Positions 2,803-47,353 of a stretch of DNA of 64,000 bases are shown here, in pieces. The stretch's first letter is position 1. Every line of letters starts with the position of its first letter. Source of the stretch: Candidatus Porifericomitales bacterium (GTDB taxonomy: Bacteria > Pseudomonadota > Gammaproteobacteria > CBDEFV01); contig CBDEFV010000007.1 in the NCBI GenBank assembly GCA_965237735.1, positions 399,305 to 463,304 on the forward strand, in the 5' to 3' direction. The notes below the pieces were generated by a model. It worked only from the letters and a program-made list of their open reading frames with translations. It had not been told where the DNA came from and did no database searches. A program made the translations under genes and the position numbers.

Positions 2803-2838
2803 GCCGATGCCGTTGATGGTGCACTCAACCTGCCGCGC
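2803..2838. repeat. 36-nt fragment identical to internal leuA sequence (window 1198-1236), abutting the left inverted repeat
   Basis: gccgatgccgttgatggtgcactcaacctgccgcgcc occurs both inside leuA and at 2803-2838. The inverted repeat begins exactly at the shared cctgccgcgccc. Confidence 0.7.
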
Positions 2839-2867
2839 CCTCGCCCTGACCGCTTCTTGAATTTGCG

Positions 2868-2898
2868 TCGCCGGCGCTCCCTGTGCTATAATTGACGG
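2868..2898 (+). promoter_or_regulatory. sigma70-like promoter inside IR-L (TTGCGT -35, 18-bp spacer, TATAAT -10)
   Basis: The -10 hexamer is a perfect TATAAT at 2893-2898 with an acceptable -35 upstream. A mirrored copy lies in IR-R. This would give a ~350-470-nt GC-rich leader before the signal-peptide codons. Confidence 0.4.
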
Positions 2899-3185
2899 CA
2901 AGGCAGGTTCCGCCTCTCTCCCGGTGTCAGCGTTTTGCGGCCGGGGAGCGCTTCTGCAGGCGGCGGGGCCTCTTTCAAGCTCTATCATTCAGCCACGATC
3001 GGGGAGTTTTCCAGATGTTCAGCAGCACCAGGACGAGCGGCAGCGCAACCGGGCAAGCCGGGCCATCGGCCGCTTCAGCGGCGGCGAGAAGGCGCGGGGG
3101 GCCTGCTGTCTGCGTTGATTGCAACCCTGGGGCCGTCTCTGCGGCCACTGCCGGTCGGCCGCCGCCGCATCGCGCCCTCCTTAAG

Positions 3186-3207
3186 GGGGGGGGGGGGGGG
3201 GGGGGCT
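3186..3207 (+). repeat. 22-nt homopolymeric G tract in the leader of giant gene A (candidate slipped-strand phase-variation site)
   Basis: g x22 at 3186-3207. The equivalent position in IR-R, upstream of gene B, has only 6-7 C/G. Confidence 0.9.
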
Positions 3208-3253
3208 TGCTTCGCAGGCCCTCTGTTCACCCGGCGCCGGCGGGATTCTGCAG

Positions 3254-6200
3254 ATGGGCGGCCCAGCAGCGGTTAGCGCTGCCGCCCGGTTTGAGCGGGC
3301 CGGGCGGGTCGGGCAGTCGCGGCCATCGGCGGCAACCGCAGCATGCAGGGATCTGCCATCTGCGGCCTTGGGGCCGCCGCTGGCAGCCCCGCTGACGAGC
3401 CCGCTGACGACGCTGACGACCTGGTCCCGGCGAATCGCCGCCGCCGCCGTTCTGCTGGCCGCCGCCCTCATCACCGTCCTCCCCGCCTCGGCCCAGGAGC
3501 AACAGCCGCCGACCCTCACCCTCAGGGTGCTGCCCCCCGAGACGATTTCAGTGAACGAAGGAGATACAGCTTCGGGGGCGGTGTGCTTCGAGGTCGTGGG
3601 TCAACCACCCGAGGAGATTGTATTCCCGTTCGATATAGTTCTTTTCCTGGAATCGAAAGTTTTCAGTCCAACTGAGCATGAACCAGGAGGCCTCGGCAGC
3701 GCCCGCGAAAACATCGATTATGTAGCTGTGATAGGGCCTGTGAGGATTCGATGGCCGGCACCAGGGGCGAGCTTTTGTCGAATCTTTCCGATACAAACAA
3801 TTGAGGACCAAGAAGTAGAACCTGATGAGAGGTTCAGAATTCTAATAGAGTTGCTACACGGTCCCTCCGGGGTGCCGGTAATCTTACTTGGCCACGTCAT
3901 CACCTACATCATCCTCGACGACGACGGGCCCGTCGTATTTGCTATCCAGGACGTCGAAAGCGGCGTGTTTGACGACACCATAGTTCCCCCCTTTGAGGAG
4001 GGCGACGAGGAGGATGCTGGATTCAGGGAGATCTGCGCCCTGGTTACGAGCCACTCCAGAGGATTCCCGCGGGAAGCAGGGGTGACGCTTTCTCTCAGTA
4101 TGTCGGATGGCAGCGCCGTCTCGCCCCAGGATTACAGCTTATCAGGGAGCAGTGAGCGGCCGCTGTTTTTTCAGCAGGGCGACCGATGGGTTTGCACTCG
4201 CTTCGCACTGGATGTGGTGGATGACGAAATCTATGAAGGGGACGAGGATCTGCTCATCTCCCTGAGTTTGGAGGCGGGGTCGCCGGCGGACCTGAGGGTG
4301 TCGACTCCCAAGGCCCGCCTGAGGATCCTCGACAACGAGGAACCACCCGGCATCGATCTGTTCGACACGGCTGCAGCCGAGCGGACAGTGGATCGGTTGA
4401 CCGTGAGTGAAGGGAGTAACATCACCTATTATGTGGCGCTGAATTCACCGCCGAGCGAAAATGTGAATCTCCAGATCTTTATCGATGACCCGGTCGGCGA
4501 CGGCAGCACTGCCGTTAACAATCGATCTCAGCTACTGGGAGCGCCCCTGACGTTCACGCCGGCCGACTGGCAGAGCACGCAGGGGGTTCCTGTCATCCTG
4601 AATCATAACAACTATTTTGGCCCGAACCGGGAAGTGGTTATCCGCTACGATGCCGTCTCGGGCGCACCGGATTACGGTGCGGCGACCCTGACGCTGACGG
4701 TTCGCGACACTGACAGGGTTCCCGCTGTGGACATAGAGTTTACTTTCACGGATGATGGGCAGACGGTCACTGCGGATGATATTGATCACGATCGTTTTAC
4801 TGAGGGCCGTGCCCCGATCAGCCTGACGATCAAGGTCTTTGCAAGGAGAATGCGCGACAGGGCGGGGGCATTTTCCGAACCTTTCGATTTGACGATGGAA
4901 TTCCGGCCGGTGGTCTGGAATGAGAGGCAGGCCGCTGATTATTTGCTCGATTACAGGGTGGCGCCGCAGGAATTCATGCTGACCCTTCCGGCATTCGGGA
5001 GCGAGGTAAGCACAGTTGTAGACCTGTTTCTGATTGACGATGACATTGCGGAGCCGGACGAGAGTTTTCAAATCAGAGGCTACAAAAGCATGGAGGAGCG
5101 TTTTTTTCCCAGTCTTCATCGCCTGGCTAACCCGGAGGCCAGCGTGGCAATCAAAAGCGACGACCGACGGGGTCTTCTCGTCTCGGCGACGTCAATCCGC
5201 TCCCGTGAAGGAGAGGTCGGCGACTTCACGGTCAGACTGCTTTCGCAGCCGCCGGCCGGCGAGTCGGTGCGTGTGGACGTGAATCTCGACGATGTCCCCG
5301 GTCTCAGCTACCTGGAAGTTGACGGCGTTTCCCATCAGCTTTCCGGCGACTTGAGGCTGATCTTCACGGAGAACGGCTGGAACCGTCCCAGGAGAGTGAT
5401 CTTCAGTGCAGACAACGAGCTTTTCGGCCCGAACCCGGAGGTGACCATCGCGCTCATTCCCGGGGGGGCCGGTTACAACGAGAGTCACAAGGCTGAACTG
5501 ACGATAATCCTTGAGGATGAGGATCCTTTTCCCAAGGTGGGGGCTCTGTCCCTTGCCTTGCTGAGTGCTCCAGAAAATTTCTTCCCGACGATAGAAAGTC
5601 AAGAGTCGGTCGGGACGGTGGCATACAAAATCGTGGCCATGCTGGACAGACCGAGCTCTGAGGATATCGAGTTGTCCCTGTCCTTCGAGGGGTCTGCCGA
5701 TGAAGACGACTACAGGGTGGAACCAGCGGCCCCCAGCCTGACCGTTCCGGCATTTGAGCGGGTTGGAAGCACAACCATCAGGGTGACCTTTACGGACGAC
5801 GACATCGCTGAAGGCGTGGAACGGATTGACATCAGAATCAGCGAGGTTCCGGGGAACACTCTAGATCCTTCGCTTTCGGACATAATAAATTCCATCTTCA
5901 TCGCCGACGCGCTCGAGGACATGCGAGGCGTCGAGGTGTCGCCGCAGCAGCTGATCGTGGTGGAGGGCGGCGAAGCGGCCACCTACACCCTCGAGTTGAC
6001 TTCGCAGCCGAGCGGCCCCCTGACGGTGACGCTGACTCTGCAGAGCGGCGGCGACGGCGGTGAGGCGTCTGCTGTTCTTCCCGCCGTCCTGATCGAGCCG
6101 ATGGAGTTGAGTTTCGAGCGCCCGAACGATGCGCCCTGGTCTGAGCCCCGGGAGATCCGTGTTTCCGTGGCGGACAACGGGGTCGAAGAGGATCCGAGGC

Positions 6201-9200
6201 AGGCGACCATCGTCCACGGCTTAACAGGTTCGGACTACCAGAGCAACGGGGTGCCGGTGCCCGATGTCCTGCTGAGGGTGGTGGAGCGCGGCCTCGTCCT
6301 GACGGAGACAGCTGCAGTAAACGAAGGCGAAGAGTACCGCTACGAAGTGGCGCTGAGGTCGCCGCCAGCCGGCGCCGTCGAGGTGGCGGTGCTGGTCAGT
6401 CAGGGCCGGGCCCTGAGGAGCCTGGAGACCGATAATGGCCGGTTTGAGATCGCGGATCGGGACTCGGTGGAGGTGCCGGGGGTGCTGAGCTTCACGCCTG
6501 AAAACTGGCATCGCACCCAGTCGGTGATCGTCCGTACGACAGACAACGACTATTCATCGCCGGATGGCCTGGAACAGGTGCTCATCACGCACATCGCCTT
6601 GGGCGCGGATTACGGCGGAGAGAAGGCGACCCTGACCCTGACGGTGCTGGACAACTATGAGCCCGCCCGCAGCATCACCCTGAGCCTGAGGCCATCGCAG
6701 CTGAGCGAGGCGGCCGGCCGGGTGGTGGTGACCGTAACGGCGGGCATCGACAGGCCGCGCCAGCAGGATACGATGGTGCAGCTTCGTGTTGTCGCCGAAC
6801 CCGTTGACGATGACCCCGCCACCGGGGGGTACGCAACGGCTGGACGGAATTCTGACTATGCGGTGGACAGCGCCTCATTCTTCTTGGTCATAGAGGCCTA
6901 TGACAGCGGTGGAAGTGGAAACTTCACCCTGCTTCTGATCGACGACGACATCGATGAGAACGGTGGCGAGGTCTTTCTCGTCGCTGCCGTTGCTGATCTT
7001 GACAATGTGCGCGCGCATGGCACGGCGACCTTGACCATCATCGACGACGACGAGCGCGGCCTCCGGATCTCGAGGGAGCGGCTGTTCCTGGTCGAGGGCG
7101 GCGAGGCCGAGGTCTATTCTGTCCGCCTGACTTCGCAGCCGACGGCGCTGGTGGGGGTGTTCATCCAAGTCGACTACGGCGCCGCCATGGAGGGCATGGC
7201 CATGGATGGCATGGCCGACAGCGTCCTTTTGAACGGCATTCCAGAGCTGCTGCTGACCTTTGGAGTCAGCGGCGAGAACGCTTGGGATCAGGAGCAGGAG
7301 GTCAGGGTCACCCTGGAGGAGAACACCGACAGCAACGAAAACAGGGAGGCGATTCTCCGCCACAGTGCCGAGGGCGGCGATTACCAGGGTTTGCCAGGGG
7401 CTGCCGTCGCCCTGAGGCTCGCTGACCGTGGCATTCGCATCTCGCCGACAGAGCTGTCGGTTTTGGAAGGAGGGACCGCCGAATACAGTCTGGTGCTGCT
7501 TTCGGCGCCGACCGCATCGGTGCAGGTGCAGCTGAGCCTCAGCGACGCCGATGCCATCGATCATTTGGAAATCGGCGGGCAGCGGACGGCTGTGGCCTCT
7601 GATCCTCTGCCGTCGCTGACATTCACGACGGACAACTGGGATACTCCGCAGACGGTGAGGGTCCAGGCGCAGGACAACCCCTATTCGGGGGAGAATGAGC
7701 CCGTGACGATCAGCCACAGCGCGAGCAGCGACGATGAAGGCTACGCCGGACTGGCCATCGATGCTGTGGAGCTGACCATCGACAACGAGGATCTGGAGTC
7801 CGACATGCTCCTGCTGGAGGTGCGCCTTGGTGATTCGGGCGACTTCGGTCCTTTTGTCCAGTTTAATGAAGAGAGACCCTTGGGCGGCGCCCTCGTCGAC
7901 AATGTTGTGGATGTGCAGCTGAGGGCCCACCTGAACGAGGCGCCCTTCAGGGACGACCGGGTTCTGCTGCTGTCCGTTGACGAGGAACTGAGCCTCGCAA
8001 CGCTCGGCCGGGACTTCTCGGCCACTCTCACAGCCACCCCTGACGATCCTGAGGGAACAGGGATTGGCCAGGGGTGGATCGCTCCGGGGGCAGCTGCCCT
8101 CAGGCTGACGCTGCCGAAAGAGAGGACGACAATCACGGTGGGACTCGAGTTTCAGGTGAAGGCCGACCGGAGCGACGAAGATGATGGGGAGGATATCCAG
8201 ATAGGCGGCACCCTCGAGGACCTGAGCGCTCGGACGGCGGCTCCTGTCTTTCTGGATATCATCGACAACGATGTCCGCGGCCTTGACATTCGGCCGCAGG
8301 CCCTGACATTGGTGGAGGGGGGCGAGACCCGGACCTACGAGGTGCGCCTGACTTCGGAGCCGGACCCGGACCCGAACCGGGACGGGGTCCTGGCGCCTGC
8401 TGAGGGAGAAGTGTCCGTACAGATAAGAATCGCGGGCACTGAGACCCCGCCGGGCGCGGCGCCTGACCGCATCAAACGGGTTCCGAACTCCCTGGTGTTC
8501 GGAGGTGATTCAGGCCCTCAGTGGAATGAATGGCAGACCGTGGACGTCTCGCTGGCAGAGAACGACAGCCGGCATGACACCCGGGAGGCTTTTCTCCGCC
8601 ACAGCACCGAGGGCACGGACTACAGTGCCGCCCCTGCTTCGCAGGTCTCCCTGACGCTGGTGGACCGCCGCATCCTCATCTCGACGGACCGCCTGACAGT
8701 CGTTGAAGGCGGGGCAGCCAGCTACACCGTGACGCTGATCTCGCCGCCGACGGGAGAGGTGACCGTGCGGGTGAGCATCGCCCGGGGCCGTCTGGGCGCG
8801 GACGGCTCCGCTGCCGTCGCCGATGCCGTGCTGGCGGAACGGCCGCTGATCTTCGACGGGGACGACTGGGATCAGCCGCAGGCGGTGACGGTGCGGCTGG
8901 CGGACAACGACTATTCGGGAGAGAATCGGCAGATCAGGATGGAGCATGTCGCCGTCGGCGGCGGCTACGACAGCGCCCAGGCGGCGACGGTGACGCTGAC
9001 CGTCGTCAACGAAGAGGAGGAGGAGACGACGAAGGTCAGGCTGAGCCTGTCGCATGCGGAGTTGCGGGAAGATCAGGGCCCCGTGCCGGTGAGGGTCCGC
9101 GCCACCCTCGATGTGCCGCGCCAGCAGGATACGGTATTGACCCTTGTATTTGACGACATCCCCGAAGATTCTCCGGATGCAGCTGAGCTGGGCCTTGACT

Positions 9201-12200
9201 TTACGAGCGATCGGCAGTTGCCCCGCTTCATCATCCCGGCATTCGGTCGATATGGGGAGCTGGAGCTGACGCTGACTCCGATCAACGACAACATCGACGA
9301 GGGCGACAGCGATCCCCTCTTTTTCAGCGTTTTTACAGAGGGGGGGTTGACGGTGGTGCCGGCCCGCCTCGATATCCTCGACGACGACAGCGCCGGCGTT
9401 ACCGTGACGCCGGCGTCCCGGAGAGTGCGTCCCGGGCAGCCGGTCGGCTACGCTCTGGTGCTGGACACGGTGCCGAACTTCGGGACGGTGACGGTGATTG
9501 CGCGCGTCCGGGCTGCGCCCGGCTCTGAGGCCCGGGCGGAGGATATCGAAGTTCCGGGGCCGCTGAGGTTCAACGATGCGAACTGGGATCGGCCGCAGCA
9601 GCTGCGGCTCGAAGCGGCAGAGGAGGTCGGGGGCTTCGGCGGGCTGATCATTGAATTCGACGCAAGCAGCGAGGATCCGCCCTACAACATCGTTGCCGTC
9701 GCCTCGGCCACCCTCGAGCTGACTGACGTCGACACGAGCCTGCAGAGCCTGGAGCTGAGGCTGAGCCGCGGCGGCGAGCGGCTGCCCCTGAGGCAGCAGC
9801 CCGACGGCGACGTCGGCTTCGCTCCCCGGGTGGCCGATTACGAGGCCGAAATTCCGTCCGGCGCCCGCAGTGCCGTTCTGACGGCGACGCCGACTGTTAC
9901 CCGGGACAATGCCGGGGAGAGTGAACAGAGCCCCGGCGAGGTCTATCTCTTCCTCGACGGCGAGCCCCAGGGGAACGGCGCTGACGTCGCCGGCGACGAG
10001 GTTCGCCTGGACCTGTCGACGGGCGGGGAGCTCTTTGTCTTCGACATCGAGGTTTCGGTGGCGCTGCCGCAGGAAAACGGAGAGACCCCGCCTGCCGTCC
10101 AGAACTACCGCCTGACGCTGAGAAGAGCCCTGCCGGAGGGCGCCGGGCTGCATATCCTGGTCGTTGATGAGGACGGAGGGCGGACGCCGCTGACGGCCGG
10201 GACGCCGCTGCGGTTCGGCCCCGACGAGGAGGGCATGAATCTGATTTTCGTCGTCCGCGCCGGCGGCAACCGCTACCCCATCAGCGAACTCAGGGTCAAC
10301 CACGGCGACGACTTCACTCTCCTCAGCGAAGACGACGGCAACCCGACCCGGGTTGAGGAGGGCCGGCTCGCCCTGTCGCGGGGGGAGGTGGTTGCAGACG
10401 GCAGCTTCGAGACGCCGGTGCGGCTGGTACGCAACGGACCCGCTCTGTCTGAGGACTTCGACTTCCGCCTGAGCTTCAGGGCGACGGCGCAGCGGCCGCG
10501 GGCCGCCGGCGCCGAGGAGCTGAGTGCCGAACTCGCCGGCACCCTGGAGGCGAACAGCGAGACGGAGACGGAGATCCGCGCGAACTACAGCGGCGAGGCT
10601 CAGGGCGAAGAATTGCTGCCGGTCTCGACGACCGTCCGCGTCTCGGCCAACGGGCCGCTGACCCTCGTCTGGAGCCTCGGGCGCTCGGGCGGCGGCGACC
10701 GCTCCTTCAAGCAGTCGGACTTCACTTCCACCCTCAGCGTCGGCGAAACGGCGACCCTGAGGATGGCGCAGGACGACGATGAAGAGCTGCGGCAAGTCCT
10801 CTCACTGGACGGGAGTGAGGGCGAGGTCGAGGTCCGCATAGCGGCGACGCACGGAGGCTCGCTGTCGAAGATCCGGGACCCGGAGCAACTGAGCTTCACC
10901 CTTGTGTTCGAAAGGCCGCGGGCGCTGCTTCGTCCGGTCGTCGATGCCGAGCCGCTGCGGGCCTTCCGCGACCCGCTCTTCGTCTTTGTCGAGGAGGGCG
11001 AGCGGCTGAACCGGCAGAACCGGCGGCACCCGCCGGAGCTGGACCTGCAGTTGCCGCTCGAACTGGTGCTGACAGCGGACAGCACGCCGCTGCAGGGCAG
11101 AGACGGGATTCTCCGCGGCCTCGATCTGAGCCCGACGATGACCATCGGCGGCGAGGCGACGGAGGGACTGAGCCTCGGCGGCGGCTCGGGCCGCGATCTG
11201 CTGTTCGCCGCTGCCGAGCCGAGGAACGGTGTCGCCGTCGCCGTGGGAATCAGAGTGCCGGACCCGCGGGTGCGCGTCGATGAGCTGCGCTTCGACGCCC
11301 ACTTCCTGTCGCTGGATCACCCCCTGGAAGTGCCCTTCGACAGGGTCAGCGGCAACGACTTCAAGGGCGACGAGAGGGTCTTCAGCATCTCCCTGAGGGG
11401 CGAGCAGCCGGCGGCCGAGACCTGGACGCTGAGCGTGGCCAACGTCCTCGAACTCGAGGACAACGGCTACAAGGCGGAGGAGGTCATCCAGGTGCCCGGG
11501 GAGCGGCTGCTGAACATCATCAGAAAGCCTGCCGGCGGCGGCGACAACTATAGCTCTGAGATCGTCTCGGTGCAGGTCTTCGACGACATCGTCCCCGGGA
11601 TTGAACCCGGCGCTCCCACTGAGGAGCTGACCGCCGAACAGCTGTCGGCGACCCTGGCCGTCGACGGGGCGGTGCCGCCCGAAGTGCGGCAGCTGCTCGA
11701 CGCCGAGGGGCCGGCGACCCTGACCCTGATCGTCGGCGTCACCCCGGCCCACGATCGCCCGGCGACCGGGGAGGAGCGGCAGGCGCGCACCCGTACGCGG
11801 ACTCTGAGGATCCGCCGCCTGCGGGCCGACGCCACGGACTCGAGGGTCGCGCTCCGCTTCGCCTACACCCCTCCCCCCGGCTTGGGGCGGGCGGGCGTCT
11901 TCAACCGCATCATCCCGCTGGCGACCGGCATCTCTGCGAGGCTGGAGGCGACGCTCAGCCCGGCGGCCCTGGTGCTGCCGAAGGGCGGGACAGCCGAGGT
12001 GCTGCTGGTGGTCAGCAACCTGCTGCTCGGCGAGGATCCCTGCAGCGTCCTCGTTTTCCGGCACTCCGCCGATCTGCAGGTGGCGCCCCGGGCCTGCGCC
12101 GGGGTGGACCGGACCAACCGCCGCTTCGAGCAGCGGCTCGAGGTGCGGGTGGACCAGGACGCGACCGCTCCCGACTACGTGATTCGGGTCGATGTGAACC

Positions 12201-15190: not shown

Positions 15191-15865
15191 CCGGCTCGGG
15201 GCCCGGCTCCCCGCCCCCTCTTCAGGGTGTGGAATCAGCCCGATGTTCGCAGCAGCATCTTCGCCGAGCGGTGGCGGCGGCGGCGGCAGCAGCGGCCCGC
15301 TGTGGCTGCTCCTCGCTGTTCCCGCGGCCCTGCTGCTCTGGCGGCGGCGACCGGCCCTGCCCTGGCGCCGACAACTCTGGAGCCGGGTCTTTCCCGGCAG
15401 CGGGGTCTCCGCGGCCCGGTAGCCAGCTCAGGGCCCGGCCCCCCGCCCCCTCTTCAGGGTGTGGAATCAGCACGATTTTCGCAGCAGCATCCTCGCCGGA
15501 CAGCGGCGGCCCGTTGTGGCTGCTCCTCGCTGTTCCCGCAGCTCCGCTGCTCTGGCGGCGGCCGGCCCTCCCCCCGTCGCCGACAACAAGTCGGATCCTT
15601 CCCGGCAGGCAGGGCCTCTGCGGCCGGCAGCCGGCTTGGGGCCTGGCCCCCCGCCCCCTCTTCAGGGTGTGGAATCAGCGCGATTTTCGCAGCAGCATCC
15701 TCGCCGGACAGCGGCGGCCCGTTGTGGCTGCTCCTTGCTGTTCCCGCGGCCCTGCTGCTCTGGCGGCGGCGGCCGGCCCTTCCCCGGCGCCGACAACTCT
15801 GGAGCCGGGTCTTTCCCGGCAGGCGCCTGCCGCGGCGCCGGCTCTCCGATTACTGCTGCCGGAGA
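15191..15865 (+). repeat. Tandem array (~3 extra copies, ~230-bp period) of promoterless tail cassettes re-encoding the gene A C-terminal sorting signal
   Basis: Units begin gtgtggaatcagc... and each encodes ...SGCGIS(P/A/T)(M/I)FAAASSP(S/D)G(n)SSGPLWLLLAVPAALLLWRRRPALP...stop. Copies differ by SNPs and indels and sit in different frames. Confidence 0.8.
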
Positions 15866-15952
15866 AAGTCCTGTAGCGAGGCGAGCAGCGCCCGGTGGAA
15901 GGGCGCTCGGGCTGCTCGATCATCATCATGTGGCCCGTCGCCAGAGATCTCG
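15866..15952 (-). pseudogene. Displaced fragment of the alpha/beta-hydrolase gene 3' end (native copy 30464-30560)
   Basis: The sequence ctgctgccggagaaagtcctgtagcgaggcgagcagcgcccggtggaagggc...catcatcatgtggcccgtcgccagagat matches the hydrolase C-terminus (GHMMMIEQPE...LQDFLRQQ*). Confidence 0.65.
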
Positions 15953-16480
15953 TCGTCACCGCGGTGCCGCCGCTGACGGCCTCTGGACGCGCAAGGAAAA
16001 TCTGGTCCTGGCCATCGAGACCGCCGACTGCATACCGCTGCTGCTGGCCGCCGACGACGGCGCGATCGTCGCCGCCCTGCACGCCGGCTGGCGCGGATTG
16101 GCCGGCGGCATCATCGACGCCGCCCTCGAGGCCCTGCCCTGTCGCCCTCAAAAGCTGCGGGCCTGGATCGGCCCGGCCATCTCGCAGCAGCACTACGAGG
16201 TCGGCAGCGAGGTGCGTCAGACCTTCCTCGAGCAGGATGGGCGCCCTCGCGTCCTTTTTCCTCCCCTCGCCGCCCAGAACGGCCGAAGCCGACGCCTCCC
16301 CGGGTCTCCGCTGGCTCGCCGACCTGCCCGGCATGGCCGCACACCAGCTGCGCCAGTTCGGATTAACGCAAATTTACAACTGCGGCCTCTGCACCTTCGC
16401 CCGCCCCGAACTGTTTTTTTCCTACAGGCGCGGCGACCGTCACAAATTTATTGTCACCTTCATCTGGCGGCAGCCGGCGA
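15953..16480 (+). pseudogene. Partial frameshifted copy of pgeF (3' two-thirds) fused by microhomology to the hydrolase fragment
   Basis: Encodes DGLWTRKENLVLAIETADCIPLLLAADDGAIVAALHAGWRGLAGGIIDAALEALPCRPQKLRAWIGPAISQQHYEVGSEVRQTFLEQD, then continues after a frameshift to ...FSYRRGDRHKFIVTFIWRQP. The junction gccgccgctgacggcctc matches the native pgeF sequence gccgcagctgacggcctc. Confidence 0.75.
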
Positions 16481-16745: not shown

Positions 16746-16794
16746 GGCGGCGCTGCAATCGCTGCGGCCGTCGGGCGCTTCGACGCCGATGATC

Positions 16795-17150
16795 AGCCTG
16801 TGCCCGGCCGGCCGGCCCTCGCCGGCGGGCCCGGGCGCCGGCGATGCGCAGGGCCTGGCGTTTCTTCGGCAGCAGGGCCTTGCCGCCGTAACCCGTCCCG
16901 GAGAAGGGCCCAGGAATCTGTAGCCTGTGAACAGGGGGCCAAGCCTCGAGCCGGCTGCAGAGCGGCAGAGGCCCCGCCTGCCGGAAAAGGCCTGGCAGCT
17001 ATTGTTGTCGGCAACCGCGGAGGGTCGGTTGGCGCCGCCGGAGCCCGTCCCGGAGAAGGGCCCAGGAAGCTGTAGCCTGTGAGCAGGGGGCCAAGCCCCG
17101 AGCCGGCTGCAGAGCGACAGAGACCCCGCCTGCCGGAAAAGGCCTGGAAG
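16795..17150 (-). repeat. Tandem array (2 extra copies, ~146-bp period) of the region immediately downstream of gene B's C-terminal tail
   Basis: ctattgttgtcggcaacc...gcctgccggaaaaggcctgg(a/c)ag is repeated at ~16850, ~16996 and in the native copy at 17151. Confidence 0.75.
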
Positions 17151-23100: not shown

Positions 23101-26100
23101 CCGGCAATGACCAGCTCCACCACGACAGCCTCGAAGTAGGGCACGTCCAGTTCTGCCCGGATGCTCAGCCGCACCCGGCCTTCGCCTTCACCGACCTCGA
23201 GGGTGCTGGTGTATTCCGCCCCGTCTCTCGACAGGGTCAGCCTGTAGTGCTGCGGCGGCTCTTCGTCGTCGAGGACGCTCAGGACGACCGGCTCCAGCGG
23301 CTGTCGCTCGTGCAGCAGATGGTAGACGGGGTCTCCGCCGTCCGGGAACTCGCTGCTGACCCTGTGGTCGATGCGCACCACGCGGGTGCCTGAATAATAG
23401 TCGTTGCCGATCGCATTGACCCGCACCGTCTGCGTCTGATTCCAGTCGTCCTCCGCGAAGCTCAGGAAGGGCACATTTTCCCTGAGAAGCCCATTCCGGC
23501 CGCTCACCCGATCCAGGCGAATCGCCTGCCGACCCGCAGTGACTGCCAGCGTCACCGTCACTTCGGCCGTCGGCCGGGAAGTCAGCACCACTTCGTAGGT
23601 CGTGGAGGCGTTTTCCGGCACAGTCCTCTGCCCGGCCGCGGAGATGAGGATGCCGGCCTCGTCGTCGTCCACGACGGTCAGGCCGAATCCCAGGTTTTGC
23701 TCGCTGCCGTAACGATGGGCCCCTCCCTGATTGCTTCCCGCCTCGAGCAGCAGCCGGTAATTCCTGTTCCCTTCAGCCACGGAGTTGTCCGACGCCCCGA
23801 TCGACAGCTCCCGGGGCGACATCCAGTTGTCCGCGTCAAAGATCAGCGCCGGCGACACAAGAAGCTCCCCGGCGCCCTCGGGGACAGCGATGCCGACACT
23901 CACCTGCTCGCCCGGATGCGGCTCGGAATTGAGCCTCACCGTAAAGGAAACCCTTTCGCCTTCGGACACGGACCGAGCCGCGACCGCCCCCGGATAGACG
24001 CCGTCGATCCAGAGGCCGCGCTCGTCGTCGTCGAGGATGCTGATGCTGTGAGAAAGCGGCGACAGCTGAAGGCCGGAAGCGGTGCTGTAGACGAGACTGA
24101 AGTCCTCGTCTCCCCCGGCCACTTCATCGTCTGTCAGACTCAGGGTCAGGGTCAGAAGCCGCATCGCCGCCCCCGCCTCAATGGTCAGCCGCTGCGGCAG
24201 CGCCGGCACAAAGGAGTAGTCCTCACCCCCGGTCGCGCTGCCCTGCTGCAGTTCCAGATCGATCACCACCGCCGTATCCGTGACCGCCCCATTCAACCGC
24301 GCCTCGACCGTCCATTCCACAACCCCGCCTGCTTCGCCCAGCTGCAGATTATCCGGCAAGCCCCTGAGGATGATATCGACGCGGGTTGACGGCCGATCGT
24401 CGTCCTCAATCCTGAGCGCAAGGACGGCGCTCTCGACACTGTAGCCGCCGGCCGGCGCGGCCACGCTGTGGCGGATCTCCAGCTCGTGATTGTCCGGGTC
24501 GCTGTCGTCAAGGGCGGTGACGGTCACAACCCTGCCCTCAGTCGCAGACCAGCCGTCCTCGCTGAAGGTCAGCGAGGACGGCGAGACGGAGACGCGGCCG
24601 GCCAGAGCCCCGTCAAACTCCAGGGCAATCCCCACATCGCCGGTCGGCCGCGAACTCAGGTTGACCCTGTATTCATAGCTCCCGCCTTCCCTCAATCTCT
24701 GCGGCCTGCCCGGCTCCGGCTCCGGCTCAATGACCAGACCGCGCTGATCGTCGTCGATGATCGTCACCACCGGGGTCCGCACCTCAGCAATGCTGAAGCT
24801 GGACGCGCCAGCTAAGAACGACAAGGCTTCCGTCTCCTCGGCGTAATCATCGTCCACCACAGACAACAGGACGAGCGCCTCGGTCACGGCCTCGCCGGGG
24901 AGAAAATCCAGCTCCAGCGGCGGAACAGAGAAATCGACGCCGGCAGAAGCCGCGCCATGGTTTTCACTGAGCCCACGGCCATCCAAGGTCACCCGGAAGA
25001 CACCGAAATAGGCCACGTCCAGCTCCGCCCTGACTCCCAGCTGAACCTCGCCATCGTCCTCCCGAAGTTCGATGGAATCGGTGTACTCGGAGCCGTCCCG
25101 CGACAGGGTCACCACCAGCCGCTGCGGCGGACCCTCGTCGTCGGCAACGCTCAGCTCGACCGAGGGAAGTCCGCTCAAGGCCGCGTAGCTGCCGTCTTCG
25201 CTGCTGAGGCTGTGCTCGATGCGCACCACGCGGGTGCCTGAGTAATGGTTGTTGTCCAAGGCCTGGACCTGCACCGTCTGCGTCTGATTCCACCGACCCG
25301 GCGCGAACTCCAGCGCCGCCACCCCAGCGGTCAGAATACGGTTGCTCCCGTCCACCCTGTCCAGCCGGACAGCGCCCTGACCCTCAGCGATGAGCAGCGA
25401 CACCCTGACCGTGGACATCGGCTGCGAACTCAGGGCCACCCTGTAGCTGGTGGCGGCGGAGCCGGCCAGAGGGTCGCCGGAGGGGCTCTCAAGCAGCAGC
25501 CGGTTGCCCTCATCGGGCCCGACGATGAGGACCCCGGCCTCGTCGTCATCCTCCAGCTGCAGGCTGAAACAACAGTTCGCAAAATTATAATTACCGGCAC
25601 CCGCGCTGATGACATCGAGGCCGAGCAGGTAATTCCTGGTGCCCCGGTCGATGTCGTCGTCCGGCACCCGGATGGCCAGCACCTGGGCGATGTCCCAGTT
25701 CTCGGGCTTGAACCTGAGGGGGAGCACCGGCGACGTCTCCAGGCGGTCGGGCGGCCCTTCAGGCACAATACCATTCCGAAAGGTGTTCACATTCACAGTG
25801 TCCGTCGGCCGCGAACCCAGGCGCATCGTCAGGGTGATGACGTCGTCCTCCACCCCTTCTCTCAGCCTCAGGGCGCCCCCCTCGATCTCAAATTCAAAGG
25901 GCGGAATCCCGGCGTGCGGGCGGAGCAGAACCTCAGGCAGCAAACCCTCCCCCGGAGCCGTGCCGCTCACCCTGAGGCCGATCTCGTCGCTGCTGAGGAT
26001 AGCGATCTCTCTCTCAATCAGCCGTTGACCCTCCTCGGCTTCGGCAAACTTCAGGAGCAGGCCGGAATCGGTCTCGGCACGGAACAGGAAAGATTCCTGT

Positions 26101-29100
26101 TCTTCGATCAGGCCGTCCCTTAAGATATCCAGCTCCAGCTGCAGCGAAACCGTCAAAGAACCTGCCGCTATCGTCAGGGCTCCGATGTCGAGGACCCTGT
26201 AGTCCTGACCCGCCATTGCGCTGCCGCCTGCAAAGGACAGCCGCACCACCGTGTCCTCCAGCCGCGCCGCGTCGTTCAGCCGGGCCACTACCCCCAGGGT
26301 CAGCGTCCCGCCTTCAGGCACCGCCAGCCCCGGCTCTGCGGACAAGCTGAGAATCACGGCATCCGACGGCTGGTCGTTGTCCTCAATGATCAGGGTCGTG
26401 GAGCCCAGCATGAAGCCGTGGTAATCCGTGTTGACGAAGCGGTAGCCGATGATCACCTCCTCCGACAGGGCGTCGGCGTCCTCCGGCGCTGTCAGGGTCA
26501 GCCTGTGAGGCTTGCTGTAAAAGTCGGGTCTAAAGGTAACTTCCGAAAAGAGCAGCCGCTGCGGGCTCAGCAGGATGTCGGCGACGTCTGCATCGCGATC
26601 GTCCCCCCGGACCACCAGCATCAGACTTAGCTCCTCTCGGCGGCCGAACAAAAACGGCTGCGAATCCAGCCTGAGATCGTACGAGACGGCACCGCCTTCC
26701 GCCACCCTCAGGGTGGCGGTCGGGAGAATGCGGCGGCCGCCGCTGCTGAAGCTGAGCCCGCGGCGGTCCCTGTCTCTCTCTTCCATGGAGAAGGCCCGTA
26801 CGTAGTTGCCCAGGACGGGGACCGAGGCGGGGGCCAACCGATGGTAATCCGGATCAGTGCTGTCGGTGCGATAGTAAAAGTCGAAAATATTGTCGAATGC
26901 GTCCAAGTCAGAAAAGAGAAATATCGTCACCATGCCGCTCTGCCACTGAACCATACTGAAGGAATGAATGCCACCAGTGCCACCCAAAATTTGAATACCT
27001 TCGCCGGTGATAGGAGAGTGTAGAATAGCCTCTACCTCAGCAGCCGGTTGCGAGGCCAGCGCCATGAAAAGATGGAAACGTTCCATCTCCCCCGGCTCCG
27101 GCTCCGTCACCCACACAGTCGTGGTCGGGAACAGGGGGATGCGCTCGCCCGTGACCTGCCCGAGGCCCCCGATCTCCAGGGTGCCGCTGGCGTAGAACAG
27201 GACCCCGGGGCTGTCGTTCTCCCGATCCGTCACCCCGACGATCCCGTCGGCAAGAGCGAGACCCTCCAGGCTGTGGACAATCCTCGCCCGGCCCGACCGG
27301 GCGTCGTCGTCCTCGGCCGCGCTGACGACCAGGATCCGGGGCCGATTCCAGTTGCTTTGCGTGAACCTCAGCGTCAGGCTGGTGGCCGCCGCCGTCGGCT
27401 CTGCCGCCGTCGCCAGCCGGATGTCGTTGTTGCGGACGCCGTTGGCGGCCGTGGCCGCCTCCACCTGCAGCACGACCGTCAAGGAGTCGGTCGGCCGAGA
27501 AGCCAGTGCCAGTCCGTAGGAGACGCCCGGGCCGCCTTCCGCTACCTGCAACTCCTCCCGTGAAAAGACGAAGCCCTGGTCGTCGTTGTAATCAATCGTC
27601 ACCCGGGCCTGGGCTTTGCCCTGCCCGGGGACGCCCCCCGAAGCCTCCGCCAGGATGAAAAAGTCTGAGCTCCCCTTGACGATGCCATCGTCGATCACGG
27701 TCAACTCCACGGTTGCAGTGCCAGACAGCCGCAATGCCGGAATGCTCAGGCGCGGACTGGCCGGCACCACGAAGTAGTCGTACGGGTTGACCGGCGCCTC
27801 GGCATTACAGGCCCCGTTGGCGTCGCAGGGCCCGAACGACAGGGCCAACTCAAGAGGCTCAGCAAGCGGCCCGCTCAGCGTAGCTACGATTTCCAGATCA
27901 AAGCGGCCGCGATCGTCATCAATACGAAGATTGTTCACATGGGCCTCGCCCGAGGCCGACGAACCCGGGATGGTCAGAAGCAGAGGCAGAAAAACGGGAG
28001 CAGGCTCGTTATCGCCAATCGTCAGCGTCATGCTCGTCGCACCGTAACCGTAATTCGATGCATCGTACACGATAACCATTTCCGGGTTCGGGCCAAAATA
28101 GTCGTTATCATTCAGGCGGACCGTCACTGCCTGCCTGACATCCCAGTTGCCCGGCGTGAATGTCAGAGGCTCTGTCACTGCAGCTGCATTGGCAATGACA
28201 GCGCTGCCGTCGCCAACGACCAAGCCGCCGTCGGCCGGGATCCCGTAAAAAAGCACCTGGAGTTCCACATCTTCGCTTGGCTGTGAATTCAGCGCCACAA
28301 AATACTCGACAGTTCCCCCTTCATCCACTGTCAACGTCTCCGTTCTCCGCCCGGCTGCAGCCGTGTCGAACAGATTGATGCCGGGTCCTTCCTCGTTGTC
28401 GAGGATCCTCAGGCGGGCATCGGGAGTCGACACCCTCAGGTTCGCCGGCGACCCCTCCGCCAAACTCAGGAAGATGAGCAGATCCTCGTCCCCTTCGAAG
28501 ATTGCGTCGTTCACCACATCCAGAATGAATCTTGCGCAAACCACTCGGTCATTCTGCTGAAAGACCAGCACCCGCTCAGAGCTGTCTGACAACACATAAT
28601 CATCGGGCGAGACGGCGCTGTCATCCGACAAACTGATAAAAAGCGTCGCCCCGCCTTCCCTCGGGTATCCTCCGGGGTGGCTCACAACTGCGACGCATAT
28701 CTTTCTGAATCCAATATCCTCCTCATCGCCCTCCTCAAAGGGGGGAACTATGGTGTCGTCAAACGCGCCGCTTTCGACGCCTTGGATAGCAAATACGACG
28801 GGCTCGTCGTCGTCGAGGATCGTGTAGATTAATCTTTTGCCAAGAAGAATCACCGTCCTCCCGAAGGCGTTGTTGATGCTCACTAAAATCAGGAACAGCT
28901 CATCAGCTTCTTCTGTTCGGTCCTCAATTGTTCTCACCTGAAAGTTTTGACAGGGCCTCGCCGTAGGCATCCGCAATTCAAAAGTTAGGGACGGCTCGAT
29001 GTTTTCAATATAATCGTTGCCCGTGCTGGCAAAGGCTCTGCCGCTGCCGTCGTCGGCTGGCGCATCTAGATGAAACCTAGAGAGCTGTTCCGTCACCACA

Positions 29101-29366
29101 TCCAGATCTATCCTGACCGGGAATTCAATTCCCTCGGGTTGACCCACGACCTCGATGCACACCGGCACCTGAGCCGTCTCTCCTTCGCTCACCGAAGCCG
29201 TCTCGGGGGGCAGCACCCTGAGGGTGAGGGTCGGCTGCTGCTGCTCCTGAGCCGAGGCGGGGAGGACGGTGATGAGGGCGGCGGCCAGCAGAACGGCGGC
29301 GGCGGCGATTCGCCGGGACCAGATCGTCAGTGGGGGGTCCGTCAGCGGGGTCGTCAGCGGCGGCAT
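17151..29366 (-). CDS. Giant secreted/surface Calx-beta repeat protein B (~4070 aa), paralogue of A, with Sec signal peptide and GlyGly-CTERM-like tail
   Basis: 12.2-kb ORF. The in-frame extension to 29843 (MTARQ...) is probably untranslated leader. Likely start is MPPLTTPLTDPPLTIWSRRIAAAAVLLAAALITVLPASA/QEQQQ. Calx-beta-like repeats throughout. C-terminus is GGGGGGGGSGLLWLFLAAPAALVTLRRRRPALHGCRQQ. Patchy ~50-70% identity to A along the whole length. Confidence 0.85.
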   Translation of the reverse strand: MPPLTTPLTDPPLTIWSRRIAAAAVLLAAALITVLPASAQEQQQPTLTLRVLPPETASVSEGETAQVPVCIEVVGQPEGIEFPVRIDLDVVTEQLSRFHLDAPADDGSGRAFASTGNDYIENIEPSLTFELRMPTARPCQNFQVRTIEDRTEEADELFLILVSINNAFGRTVILLGKRLIYTILDDDEPVVFAIQGVESGAFDDTIVPPFEEGDEEDIGFRKICVAVVSHPGGYPREGGATLFISLSDDSAVSPDDYVLSDSSERVLVFQQNDRVVCARFILDVVNDAIFEGDEDLLIFLSLAEGSPANLRVSTPDARLRILDNEEGPGINLFDTAAAGRRTETLTVDEGGTVEYFVALNSQPSEDVELQVLFYGIPADGGLVVGDGSAVIANAAAVTEPLTFTPGNWDVRQAVTVRLNDNDYFGPNPEMVIVYDASNYGYGATSMTLTIGDNEPAPVFLPLLLTIPGSSASGEAHVNNLRIDDDRGRFDLEIVATLSGPLAEPLELALSFGPCDANGACNAEAPVNPYDYFVVPASPRLSIPALRLSGTATVELTVIDDGIVKGSSDFFILAEASGGVPGQGKAQARVTIDYNDDQGFVFSREELQVAEGGPGVSYGLALASRPTDSLTVVLQVEAATAANGVRNNDIRLATAAEPTAAATSLTLRFTQSNWNRPRILVVSAAEDDDARSGRARIVHSLEGLALADGIVGVTDRENDSPGVLFYASGTLEIGGLGQVTGERIPLFPTTTVWVTEPEPGEMERFHLFMALASQPAAEVEAILHSPITGEGIQILGGTGGIHSFSMVQWQSGMVTIFLFSDLDAFDNIFDFYYRTDSTDPDYHRLAPASVPVLGNYVRAFSMEERDRDRRGLSFSSGGRRILPTATLRVAEGGAVSYDLRLDSQPFLFGRREELSLMLVVRGDDRDADVADILLSPQRLLFSEVTFRPDFYSKPHRLTLTAPEDADALSEEVIIGYRFVNTDYHGFMLGSTTLIIEDNDQPSDAVILSLSAEPGLAVPEGGTLTLGVVARLNDAARLEDTVVRLSFAGGSAMAGQDYRVLDIGALTIAAGSLTVSLQLELDILRDGLIEEQESFLFRAETDSGLLLKFAEAEEGQRLIEREIAILSSDEIGLRVSGTAPGEGLLPEVLLRPHAGIPPFEFEIEGGALRLREGVEDDVITLTMRLGSRPTDTVNVNTFRNGIVPEGPPDRLETSPVLPLRFKPENWDIAQVLAIRVPDDDIDRGTRNYLLGLDVISAGAGNYNFANCCFSLQLEDDDEAGVLIVGPDEGNRLLLESPSGDPLAGSAATSYRVALSSQPMSTVRVSLLIAEGQGAVRLDRVDGSNRILTAGVAALEFAPGRWNQTQTVQVQALDNNHYSGTRVVRIEHSLSSEDGSYAALSGLPSVELSVADDEGPPQRLVVTLSRDGSEYTDSIELREDDGEVQLGVRAELDVAYFGVFRVTLDGRGLSENHGAASAGVDFSVPPLELDFLPGEAVTEALVLLSVVDDDYAEETEALSFLAGASSFSIAEVRTPVVTIIDDDQRGLVIEPEPEPGRPQRLREGGSYEYRVNLSSRPTGDVGIALEFDGALAGRVSVSPSSLTFSEDGWSATEGRVVTVTALDDSDPDNHELEIRHSVAAPAGGYSVESAVLALRIEDDDRPSTRVDIILRGLPDNLQLGEAGGVVEWTVEARLNGAVTDTAVVIDLELQQGSATGGEDYSFVPALPQRLTIEAGAAMRLLTLTLSLTDDEVAGGDEDFSLVYSTASGLQLSPLSHSISILDDDERGLWIDGVYPGAVAARSVSEGERVSFTVRLNSEPHPGEQVSVGIAVPEGAGELLVSPALIFDADNWMSPRELSIGASDNSVAEGNRNYRLLLEAGSNQGGAHRYGSEQNLGFGLTVVDDDEAGILISAAGQRTVPENASTTYEVVLTSRPTAEVTVTLAVTAGRQAIRLDRVSGRNGLLRENVPFLSFAEDDWNQTQTVRVNAIGNDYYSGTRVVRIDHRVSSEFPDGGDPVYHLLHERQPLEPVVLSVLDDEEPPQHYRLTLSRDGAEYTSTLEVGEGEGRVRLSIRAELDVPYFEAVVVELVIAGEGTDALAEAGVDYLLEPPTLLIPAGQAAVETAVELQLLQDRIAEGTEHLQVGAINVIAQTPLSADAEAPVLSLGILDDDERGLLFAPALLRVLEGRGSEYSVRLASSPTLTVNLEIAVVTPDGYPGSLENAGLSFSVAGEQSDRLMFTTENWHRPQTVIVSAAEDTGANGPRVLQLVHRATGGDYDGESGTLSLELSDTDARLSSLEVALDGGRMATLRPVFDANVLEYGADIPFGTDRAFIRAVPTATGDIVVDGVKVQNRAEVRIFHVTGSGAPEALEDGDNVAGQQVVVDRQRLRRDGVDFEFRIQVSVDPLEGSNDETVFETYTLRLRRALPAAAALLVFPAADAERQRPLTLDAPLNFGPDVDEMDLIFVVRDEDGNSYSISELEAAGPGLGARVRVDTGSQTEPEEGAFETPVTLRRDQALTAGTFTFNLTFTATPQRPLAVGAEQLTVGVAGTLYDNSDTATGIRASYRGHDQEQALPVSQGDLIRVSSNGTLTIDLGVERRSGGLRDFEQASFTLSVTPADSDRVNLTDDRLEIQSGDNIGVTVDATGGATLGDRINDPVPLQFNVSFVRPTAEIRPAASADALFDFDSNLFFAFVNEDNGEDNDNDNDNRLPLEVALTGDSTPLADSGRILGGISLTLTVVGEGAGNAIRLGGPAGSAAPGRDLLFEVMAPRANVGVTVGLANDASAERTALVDVASLDFTAHLLSFIYDDEIGINSDEEQPVVISRVMLKGAGSAESWTLSVGNPLELDDGGYEVEEVVVVERATRVSRIVGRVVMPAEPGSTTLITTYSSRTVTVRLLDGDGPDTTVATAFEDVAEADVPVDALAQFAADDSLRTATVVTEIPATYRPATGEERQAATVTRTLRITSTSDDPRNSRILLGVDYRPGVVDEGAAGRFSRIIALLTGEEPVLNAEVRGDNDETVEDIVLPRGGSTELTLVISNLLETDDPNVRGAITYRFDQTDLRVAPLEAAEIDRNNRRSEQRLTVEVSESADRAGYPVSIDVRLGGRSARAEFRIDINDAPEYVGETRLTVKEDGDAAAGGIQAYVLTVHDPDGGLMELSPDDLMLEAVLGDNNSEPFTFGTGVQELVPYFSLASGSVERRDLAGGANELFVTLTLTGRLATPFGSVVELRLSGATDGYDVLNQRLLVQVEDVAPTFMLATTTVTVFADQREVVLKLDEFSDGRRGATPGDQLPVVVVQHAPDDLVVRFDREQRQVTLIRLNDSQDDEDEQITLVVVDSQGGRTEVTLNIERPSLLPQILPPSPLLVVAGDDNPVVRELSFTEATDLEVIWTASGHEDLNAVVETLDDGSGRVAVSALLAVAGRAFMLELTATSADGMQRTAELPVVVVAPAPRPRLQLSLKAADPADPTTAGSTVSSFLLTDTLFVEATLAGQLPQQIEVGSVTTFTLSIARLGPDGEPIATATVEWELTTTVEVNADLRVGLALMTASATGLQGLDVADGQVVEISISHFFGSGVIEGDRLRLPVVDLRDSAEPLDAFIDTDNDGLVDAAGDEVDPAILGPIEAAVAAVTDAGVEVQDDELSLSLGNLARSLNLGQCGGVTLALMVAMDGTVAGLSGCGDALLTDFENLDTAEAVTQALSAGGFGGGAGDYLIVDLSIRFDSSETEANELVLINLPPHPGEHLSYEVYRLVEATWVPVIDAGLPGGAGGAGALEGVADCDTCFYGVDDDRDGSVELLLLLRSVEEPLNLEVGEEFRDRRLELDAGADGTVIPLSGLRPGLTPVVTGSDNVEGEFSNTVAAGPALILTGSKRTLGGPEEVLVELFDDDGGAAVASFTLQVGVRNQPPVITFELDGEETTTISLEPNTETVVRVIITDPDGDDSFRLELAKPGDDEIARLVSRAMPSVNDPAVFVVEHRLVLTPGAARSPFRLRVRATDLTDPDDDGGTLSERLTVCVLNEDGKCPAASRSSGGGGGGGGSGLLWLFLAAPAALVTLRRRRPALHGCRQQ

Positions 29367-29906
29367 CAGGGCCGGAATTGGGGCCGGAATCCGGCCCGAT
29401 GGCAGACCTCTGTACGCTGCGGGCTGCCGCCGATGGCCGCGACTGCCCGGCCCGCCCGGCCCGCTCAAACCGGGCGGCAGCGCTAACCGCCGGCTGGGCC
29501 GCCCATCTGTGCAGAATCCCGCCGGCGCCGGGTGAACAGGGGCCTGCGAGGCAAGCCCCCCTTTAAGGAGGGCGCGATGCGGCGGCTGCCGCCGCAGAGA
29601 CGGCCCCAGGGTTGCAATCAACGCAGACAACAGGCCCCCCCGCCTTCTCGCCGCCGCTGAGGCGGCCGATGGCCCGGCTTGCCCGGTTGCGCTGCCGCTC
29701 GTCCTGGTGCTGCTGAACATCTGGAAAACTCCCCGATCGTGGCTGAATGATAGAGCTTGAAAGAGGCCCCGCCGCCTGCAGAAGCGCTCCCCGGCCGCAA
29801 AACGCTGACACCGGGAGAGAGGCGGAACCTGCCTTGCCGTCAATTATAGCACAGGGAGCGCCGGCGACGCAAATTCAAGAAGCGGTCAGGGCGAGGGCGC
29901 GGCAGG
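29225..29906. repeat. Right arm of large inverted repeat (IR-R), mirror of 2829-3510
   Basis: Reverse complement of IR-L, including the promoter-like TATAAT (attata at 29846-29851) and the leader. Has C6-7 where IR-L has G22. Confidence 0.85.
29838..29868 (-). promoter_or_regulatory. Mirrored sigma70-like promoter for gene B inside IR-R
   Basis: Reverse complement of the TTGCGT-N18-TATAAT element. The MTARQ ATG at 29843 would lie upstream of the predicted transcription start, which argues for a later start for gene B. Confidence 0.35.
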
Positions 29907-30094
29907 CAGTTATCAGCAAGGAAACGCCGCCACTGCCAGGCTGACAGGGGACGCCACCTCGATCAATCCGCCGGCGGCGCCGACCCACAGACACAGCAGC
30001 AGAGCGAGAGCAAGGCCGACCAGCGGATAGAAGGGAAGGGACAGGCCGATCCCGGCCGGCGCCGCCGGCAACGGCAGCACCCTGAGAAATTTCG

Positions 30095-47346: not shown

Positions 47347-47353
47347 TGGGACC

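Follow-up and report, generated by a model that had tools for sequence, protein, structure and literature searches.

Two old, convergent paralogous giant genes with GlyGly-CTERM-like C-terminal tails and near-identical 5' ends in a Candidatus Porifericomitales genome

Two giant genes, termed A and B, face each other in a 64,000-nucleotide stretch of the genome of a Candidatus Porifericomitales bacterium (GenBank assembly GCA_965237735.1, contig CBDEFV010000007.1, positions 399,305–463,304; this whole stretch is hereafter called the window). Their 5' ends form an inverted repeat, and their products end in a glycine run, a hydrophobic helix and an arginine cluster. What kind of proteins do these genes encode, is the tail a sorting signal, and how did two otherwise very different genes come to share one 5' end? 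The two genes are genuine and intact, and they are long-diverged paralogues for giant proteins that probably sit at the cell surface. Gene A occupies positions 3254–15190 of the plus strand and encodes 3978 amino acids (aa); a 3978-aa gene is also called on a contig in the ENA. Gene B is listed on the minus strand at 17151–29843 (4230 aa). Its listed TTG start codon at 29843 overlaps a -10 (TATAAT) box and cannot be the real start. From an ATG in the leader (29720) the product would comprise 4189 aa, and from an internal ATG at 29366, a plausible start, about 4071 aa. The codon-position GC signal is strong and unbroken along both open reading frames (ORFs), with GC contents of about 0.8 at third and 0.46 at second codon positions. 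The original prediction of two facing giant genes with inverted-repeat 5' ends is thus borne out by the ORFs and by the identity profile of the repeat that starts at 2829/29906.

The inverted repeat is a mosaic. Its left arm (2829–3606, plus strand) covers the upstream region, the roughly 470-nt leader and the codons for the signal peptide of A; the right arm (29137–29949, minus strand) covers the upstream region, the leader and the signal peptide of B (29250–29321). From the sharp outer edge at 2829/29906 identity is 99% over 2829–3145 (about 316 nt) and about 93% up to 3340, followed by a diverged, indel-rich segment (3342–3420). The signal-peptide codons at 3421–3470 are 100% identical; beyond them identity is 80–94% per 50-nt block as far as 3606 and poor over 3607–3863. 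It then rises again, to 82% at 3864–4474 and 79% as far as 4707. This inner tract (3864–4707, plus strand), which covers the second Calx-beta domain, is 79–82% identical to 28012–28867 and is separated by the divergent 3607–3863 segment from the outer, younger one. BLASTN joins 2829–4707 and 29906–28012 in a single alignment of 1,939 columns at 79.6% identity. Repeat search and alignment revealed an additional outer arm of 44 nt (2701–2744 and 29906–29949, the latter included in the right arm), 93% complementary and parted from the main arm by an 84-nt insertion in the left copy (2745–2828) that includes a 31-nt leuA-like fragment. The presence of this outer arm indicates that the inverted repeat formerly extended further out. 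An extended -10 element, TGCTATAAT, was read by eye from the sequence at 2884–2892 and is found in both copies of the repeat. The promoters that the original prediction placed in the repeats are only putative: a sigma-70 promoter scan returned none, and no other element than this -10 was recognised by eye in both copies.

The age of the paralogues contrasts with the near-identity of their 5' ends. Proteins A and B are 35–38% identical over their length. To P0002, a metagenome protein of 5,466 aa, B shows 63% identity over 2,700 aa; the best relatives of A reach about 35%. Since P0002 resembles B more closely than A does, A and B must have separated before B diverged from its equivalent in another organism. 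The non-coding leader, at 99% identity, cannot be as old as this, which points to a recent homogenisation of the 5' ends. The data support a recent gene conversion between old paralogues that would have rendered about 0.8 kb of upstream region, leader and signal-peptide sequence nearly identical. An earlier conversion event is recorded by the 82% tract deeper in the genes, this older tract reaching to about 1.9 kb. The 3' ends, comprising the tail and the 3' flank, likewise resemble each other somewhat more (81%) than does the coding sequence next to them (66–69%). The suggestion that the repeats permit gene conversion between A and B is therefore upheld by the mosaic identity profile together with the 35% protein identity. 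The mirrored layout itself would not be a device but a product of segmental duplication and rearrangement, followed by conversion. As a consequence of conversion at the 5' ends, two very different fibres would be provided with one regulatory and export front end, and probably be co-regulated. The locus represents a clean natural case of conversion limited to the regulatory and export front end of old paralogues.

Genes for paralogous surface proteins that are homogenised at their ends are known in Helicobacter pylori (babA/babB), and the sap locus of Campylobacter fetus is an inversion system. The A/B pair has in common with them the divergent bodies, near-identical 5' ends (with the 3' ends more weakly alike) and a slippage-prone repeat in one 5' region. 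It differs in that the two genes are convergent, each with its own promoter copy rather than the single movable promoter of sap, and in showing no evidence of chimeras, inversion or on/off switching.

Both proteins begin with the same signal peptide (WSRRIAAAAVLLAAALITVLPASA followed by QEQQ), encoded at 3422–3493 on the plus strand in A and identical in B. This segment is the top hydrophobic stretch of each protein (2.31), with a few others marginal (1.66–1.84), so that, judged by hydrophobicity rather than by a signal-peptide predictor, each chain has a signal peptide and no other transmembrane segment apart from the tail helix. Twin-arginine translocation (Tat), suggested by an SRR motif, was considered and judged unlikely for calcium-dependent beta-sandwich chains; a whole-protein NCBIfam scan gave no match to a Tat-signal model.

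The original prediction described both products as long chains of Calx-beta repeats, which is true of only part of each chain. Calx-beta (PF03160) is the only Pfam family above threshold (gathering cutoff 27 bits), with 67.8 bits in A and 124.6 bits in B, the latter in four stretches. A hidden Markov model iterated on both proteins finds 6–7 Calx-beta-like domains in A (aa 124–2031) and seven in B (aa 239–2300), with other beta-sandwich-like units between them. Calx-beta does not extend into the last 1,900 aa or so. This region is collinear in the two proteins, with an identity of about 35% that climbs to about 50% within the last 780 aa, and it matches no Pfam family; sequence searches of the PDB likewise gave no relative. 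The family has thus remained unannotated, its conserved C-terminal region having neither a Pfam match nor a solved relative. The 715 aa that precede the tail are almost entirely beta strand in a structure model with a mean predicted local distance difference test (pLDDT) score of 64.5, and a fold search with this medium-confidence model matched only generic chains of immunoglobulin-like domains. Distant profile matches are cadherin-like repeat proteins, aligning to the last domain. This domain closes with an invariant C-x7-C, which looks like a disulfide, and is followed by a short linker and the glycine run. From its N-terminus each chain comprises a signal peptide, some 2,000 aa in which Calx-beta and other beta-sandwich domains take turns, about 1,900 aa of conserved sequence ending in a cadherin-like domain, a glycine linker and the putative C-terminal sorting signal.

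In size and in their chains of calcium-binding beta-sandwich domains (Calx-beta, cadherin-like with DxDxDG), A and B resemble the giant adhesins exported by type I secretion systems (T1SS), LapA, SiiE and MpIBP (PMC6272769). These adhesins, however, lack a Sec signal and carry a C-terminal RTX/T1SS signal, whereas A and B have a signal peptide and a C-terminal membrane helix, with no adjacent T1SS genes. No RTX match was found, and the LapA domain model reached 26.6 bits against a cutoff of 27, with no single stretch passing; A and B do not belong to the LapA-RTX class.

The tail of A (15038–15124, plus strand) reads GGGGGGGSSG-PLWLLLAVPAALLLW-RRRP, with a 15-residue hydrophobic segment containing a proline, and that of B (17178–17267, minus strand) reads GGGGGGGGSG-LLWLFLAAPAALVTL-RRRRP. 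From the glycine run onward neither has a cysteine. Their sequence and tripartite architecture are exactly as first described; the position is not, the tails lying short of the very C-terminus.

The tail is shared by a wider family. An exhaustive profile search with the last 780 aa retrieved 73 cluster representatives, 29 of them at E<1e-30, and every representative with an intact end (20 or more metagenomic relatives) carries the tail in one of two forms: a G-run followed by [ST]G, LLWL[FL]LAAPAxL and RLRRRR, or GGGGSLG[PL]WAL..LPLLLG.RRRR. Mean pairwise identity is 0.63 in the tail columns against 0.48 in the upstream domain. The glycine run, the [ST]G-LLW motif, the helix proline and the arginine cluster are kept among relatives that are only 35–45% identical elsewhere. 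That the tail is better conserved than the folded domain upstream argues against a generic anchor. Two cysteines just before the linker, 17–25 residues upstream of the helix, are also invariant; CPAA is common at this place, where A has CRRS. In two relatives, on contigs L082 and L083, the same C-terminal region and tail follow Glug/PKD repeats instead of Calx-beta, and the relatives P0004 and P0012 also lack Calx-beta. The conserved unit is therefore the C-terminal stalk with its tail, and the N-terminal array is variable. On L083 (1–22832) at least three such giant genes follow one another on one strand; the L082 relative lies at 4504–12755.

Members of the tail family were found only in metagenome-derived protein sets. 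A word-indexed search of 5.8 billion proteins returned only one and then four relatives and did not find the giant proteins themselves. Scans of genome and metagenome contigs by C-terminal alignment revealed no relatives, an exact 23-mer from the leader had no match in metagenome contigs, and the exact sequences of A, of the alpha/beta-hydrolase encoded next to B and of P0002 are not on record.

The tails had been proposed to be sorting signals of the rhombosortase or exosortase type. The tripartite design stands, and the family lies in the sequence space of GlyGly-CTERM and MYXO-CTERM, while the tails of A and B themselves score below every curated cutoff. The tails have no PEP motif, as noted at the outset, and give no TIGR02595 match at E<=10, and they do not belong to the PEP-CTERM/exosortase class. 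The pairing of a Sec signal with such a tail, previously called unusual, is the norm, since proteins carrying sorting signals of this kind have signal peptides (PMC3237569). MYXO-CTERM always has a cysteine in its motif and GlyGly-CTERM never does (Haft & Varghese 2011, PMC3237569). At E<=1, 11 of the 23 family tails examined match the GlyGly-CTERM model TIGR03501 and 17 match MYXO-CTERM, and no cysteine occurs in the motif of any. Only the tail of P0003 gives a full-length MYXO-type alignment, without the cysteine, and most of the others skip the cysteine positions. The C-termini of A and B, tripartite and with a cysteine-less glycine-rich motif, are in this respect of the GlyGly-CTERM kind, and they also match, below cutoff, the tail end of the GlyGly-CTERM protein family SVAGG. 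Sub-threshold tails are promoted to GlyGly-CTERM if extended homology spans a trusted example (PMC3237569). Two homologous tails exceed the TIGR03501 cutoff of 15.5 bits, those of P0018 (18.4 bits) and P0009 (16.3 bits), and both proteins align with A and B through the tail, which provides the extended homology, if with small margins. Judged from these alignments, the tails are best filed as GlyGly-CTERM-like, with membership by score attained by homologues and not by A and B themselves.

The resemblance to GlyGly-CTERM proteins processed by rhombosortase (RrtA/RssP), such as VesB of Vibrio cholerae (PMC3237569, PMC6219818, PMC13393428), extends over the signal peptide, the unstructured linker, the cysteine-less Gly/Ser-rich motif, the single hydrophobic helix, the arginine cluster and a proteobacterial host with an outer membrane. 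Unlike in typical GlyGly-CTERM proteins, the glycine run is much longer (7–8 or more), the helix contains a proline and a near-invariant tryptophan, and residues follow the arginine cluster. MYXO-CTERM, recognised by myxosortase, and Synerg-CTERM (bioRxiv 10.1101/2023.06.07.544157, PMC11980579) share with A and B the tripartite design and near-threshold scores, and the proline in the leucine-rich helix is a Synerg-CTERM-like trait; A and B differ from both in the absence of a cysteine from the signature motif and in a host outside Myxococcota and Synergistota.

On balance it is somewhat more likely than not that A and B are old paralogous, giant fibre- or adhesin-like proteins with a GlyGly-CTERM-class tail, rhombosortase-type processing and 5' ends homogenised by conversion. 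The VesB pathway serves as the model for their route (PMC6219818, PMC13393428, bioRxiv 10.1101/2023.06.07.544157). By analogy, the signal peptide would take the protein across the inner membrane, where the C-terminal helix would retain it with the arginine cluster in the cytoplasm. An intramembrane protease of the rhombosortase type, whose gene would lie elsewhere in the genome, could then cut at the Gly/Ser motif, a lipid-like moiety would be added, and the protein would be transferred to the cell surface, probably via the type II secretion system. If the tail is a true signal of this type, A and B would be very large clients of the pathway, and one would have to ask how some 4,000 residues, once exported by Sec, get through the outer membrane. 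The range of sorting signals is extended by this family; it does not alter the current understanding of such signals and does not constitute a new system.

Several observations weigh against this interpretation. Neither the whole proteins nor isolated tails of 25–67 aa match TIGR03501. With MYXO-CTERM (TIGR03901) A and B reach 17.4–18.1 bits against a cutoff of 20, in alignments that begin only at model position 9–10; with Synerg-CTERM (TIGR04564) the A tail, which has the proline and lacks the cysteine, reaches 18.6 bits against 22.5. The tails are followed by 21 residues in A and 8 in B beyond the arginine cluster. Where a genome has just one GlyGly-CTERM client, the gene for the protease usually lies next to it (PMC3237569); no rhomboid, exosortase or CPBP protease gene occurs among the scanned ORFs of the window (342–54,508), among the genes in the 9.6 kb to its left or beside the relatives. 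Within the window the tail is confined to A, B and orphan copies of the A tail and is not found on unrelated proteins. Known rhombosortase clients are enzymes of ordinary size, as against about 4,000 aa in A and B, and the passage of a chain of this length through the outer membrane has no explanation in the proposed pathway. A 241-aa "gene" downstream of the L082 relative, considered as a candidate sortase, was rejected as an antisense artefact of the glycine-run codons.

The sub-cutoff scores, the lack of a candidate protease nearby, the short hydrophobic core of 15 residues and the residues past the arginine cluster would all suit a tail that simply serves as an uncleaved C-terminal anchor in the inner membrane, with its arginine cluster inside and no sortase-like enzyme involved. 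Such an anchor is unlikely, although it deserves consideration: the motif is kept across relatives of 35–45% identity better than the folded domain, homologous tails do pass TIGR03501, and the periplasm would presumably have no room for a chain with 35 or more beta-sandwich domains.

Another possibility concerns the 5' ends rather than the tail. The leader of A contains a G21 tract (3185–3205, plus strand), the only homopolymer of at least 10 nt in the window; at the equivalent site B has an A followed by G6. The leader also includes a short ORF (MFSSTRTSGS..., 3015–3395, plus strand) with a good Shine-Dalgarno sequence, GGGGAG, at 3001–3006. In B this ORF shares the frame of the giant gene; in A it is off by one G and would read into the gene with a tract of G22 or G19. 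The start of A is uncertain, lying at ATG 3254, at TTG 3368 or, were the tract 22 G long, at ATG 3015. In contig ctg493031 of a second assembly (ENA ERZ26167216) the tract has 20 G, the sole difference from the window over 11,896 nt, and the same site is present in reverse complement in L085; the difference is either slippage or a homopolymer miscall.

These features could form a switch, in which slippage toggles A, or the G21 leader is transferred from A to B through RecA-mediated inversion or conversion, so that the displayed fibre varies. One more G would fuse the Shine-Dalgarno-bearing leader ORF to A, as in B, and stretches of 100% identity flanking the tract would permit exchange. We regard such a switch as rather doubtful, however. 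The leader region has no coding signal in its codon-position GC, long reads err most often in the length of homopolymers, the leader RNA is no more stably folded than shuffled sequences (z = +1.1), and Rfam searches of the whole window and of the leader gave no credible match. Inversion of the 26 kb would only swap the leaders between the two bodies. No inverted isomer was seen; the junction of the left arm with the 5' end of A, as retrieved from the second assembly, agrees with the window, the right-arm side being extrapolated. A terminator scan found terminator-like sites only at chance level.

Returning to the tail, it could also belong to a different, perhaps undescribed, system, either as a cysteine-type signal, C-x7-C(P), for a CPBP protease that resembles myxosortase or, given its helix proline, as a Synerg-CTERM-like signal. 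MYXO-CTERM matches more of the family than GlyGly-CTERM does (17 against 11 of 23), the best match of A is to Synerg-CTERM, the class defined by an invariant proline within a leucine-rich helix (bioRxiv 10.1101/2023.06.07.544157), and the cysteine pair, commonly in the form of CPAA, is invariant just before the linker. In the defined cysteine-type signals, by contrast, the cysteine sits in the motif beside the helix, and it is these positions that most of the alignments skip here. All scores but one are below cutoff, A has CRRS in place of CPAA, and the pair resembles a disulfide of the last domain. This alternative is accordingly improbable, and the GlyGly-CTERM-like assignment is retained.

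The tail-coding segments are also sites of tandem duplication. An array at 15058–15824 (plus strand) repeats the A tail segment and its 3' flank 3.5 times with a period of about 208–232 bp and 84% matches. Downstream of the A stop codon it leaves three orphan tail cassettes that still read GPLWLLLAVPAALLLWRRRPALP, two of the three in other reading frames. At the 3' end of B a 152-bp unit occurs twice (16882–17195, minus strand) and comprises the last 15 or so codons and the 3' flank, the hydrophobic segment being excluded. The spacer between the two genes (15803–16729, plus strand) is a mosaic of copies, 85–97% identical to their sources, of an alpha/beta-hydrolase gene and of pgeF, which Pfam recognises in the full copies. 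The 3' end of the hydrolase gene with its flank (30417–30586; full gene 30464–31279) is represented at 95–97% identity, the 3' part of pgeF (35649–36166) at 93% and the sequence downstream of pgeF (36443–36669) at 85%. Degenerate A tail cassettes with 3' flank, in both orientations, lie at 30107–30515 between the right arm and the hydrolase gene. The simplest reading of these scars is that a giant gene once ended beside the hydrolase and that duplicated and rearranged segments gave rise to the pair seen today.

A comparable array of tail segment and 3' flank (period 195, 4.5 copies, 98%) follows the gene of P0001 (L001, 3856–4743), a relative with 44–48% protein identity. Its flanks look unrelated to those of A by eye, and it probably arose independently. 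In the window and in L001 alike the left boundary of the array falls in the glycine-run codons, so that the (GGN)n run may be a duplication hot spot. After the giant gene of L083 there is a different, 135-bp array, and L082 has none. It is conceivable that such arrays betray a process by which sorting-signal "suffix" cassettes are generated and spread, or a lineage-specific mechanism of gene-end duplication; such a process would account for C-terminal sorting tails on unrelated genes. We consider this a long shot and, rather than a function tied to the tail, favour a high local rate of tandem duplication on which selection acts as a filter.

Other long-period arrays in the window are located at 32455–33578, 36098–36593, 40101–40660, 45539–46095, 47080–47482, 48767–49289 and 52113–52741, and in L001 at 9366–9925 and 11190–12330. 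They have periods of 93–376 bp, several of which are not multiples of 3, and contain 2–6 copies at 94–97% identity. By eye they sit at gene junctions and ends: the 5' end of a metB-like gene, the 3' end of pgeF, five junctions of the tra operon (40.1–52.7 kb), surA/recA and, three times, recX. The 10 kb on the left side of the window, which carry housekeeping genes, have no such array.

The leuA and traG genes of the same organism are on record in ENA and NCBI (assembly ERZ26167216). Contigs ctg493031 and ctg486694 of this assembly match positions 1–11896 (99.992%) and 35289–42039 (100%) of the window, including its 93-bp and 247-bp arrays. By extrapolation of coordinates they would extend to about 22,943 and 28,431, respectively, thus spanning both arms with their own bodies. 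Decay or partial mis-assembly, under which the pair, the arrays and the mosaic would be junk and one or both genes non-functional, would fit the 3–7x coverage of related ENA contigs, the extrapolated breaks inside B, the many duplication scars and the uncertain start codons, yet is very improbable given two intact 12-kb ORFs with strong codon-position GC, the agreement of the two contigs at 99.99% and 100%, arrays included, and a 35% identity of A and B that is too low for the mis-assembled, collapsed repeat envisaged as a refutation in the original prediction or for a duplication artefact. On the same extrapolation both contigs end inside B and leave about 5.5 kb of it uncovered, for which low coverage (5–7x) or heterogeneity may be responsible.

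The module is flanked on the left by leuA and, past the window edge, by genes for TPMT, an acyltransferase/AMP-binding protein, dnaJ, dnaK, grpE, a methyltransferase, fpg and GST. To its right lie the alpha/beta-hydrolase gene, a gene for a Cys/Met pyridoxal phosphate enzyme, bamD, rluD and pgeF, and then an F-type conjugative element. The presence of bamD indicates a host with an outer membrane. Among the matches listed, the best hits of LeuA to GTDB species representatives are 66–67% identical and belong to Gamma- and Betaproteobacteria; the order bamD-rluD-pgeF is one that we take to be the typical gammaproteobacterial arrangement. The conjugative region (37289–55100), which encodes TraG, TraH, TraF, TraN, TrbC, TraU, an S26 peptidase, TraC, TrbI and TraK, is probably an integrated conjugative element.

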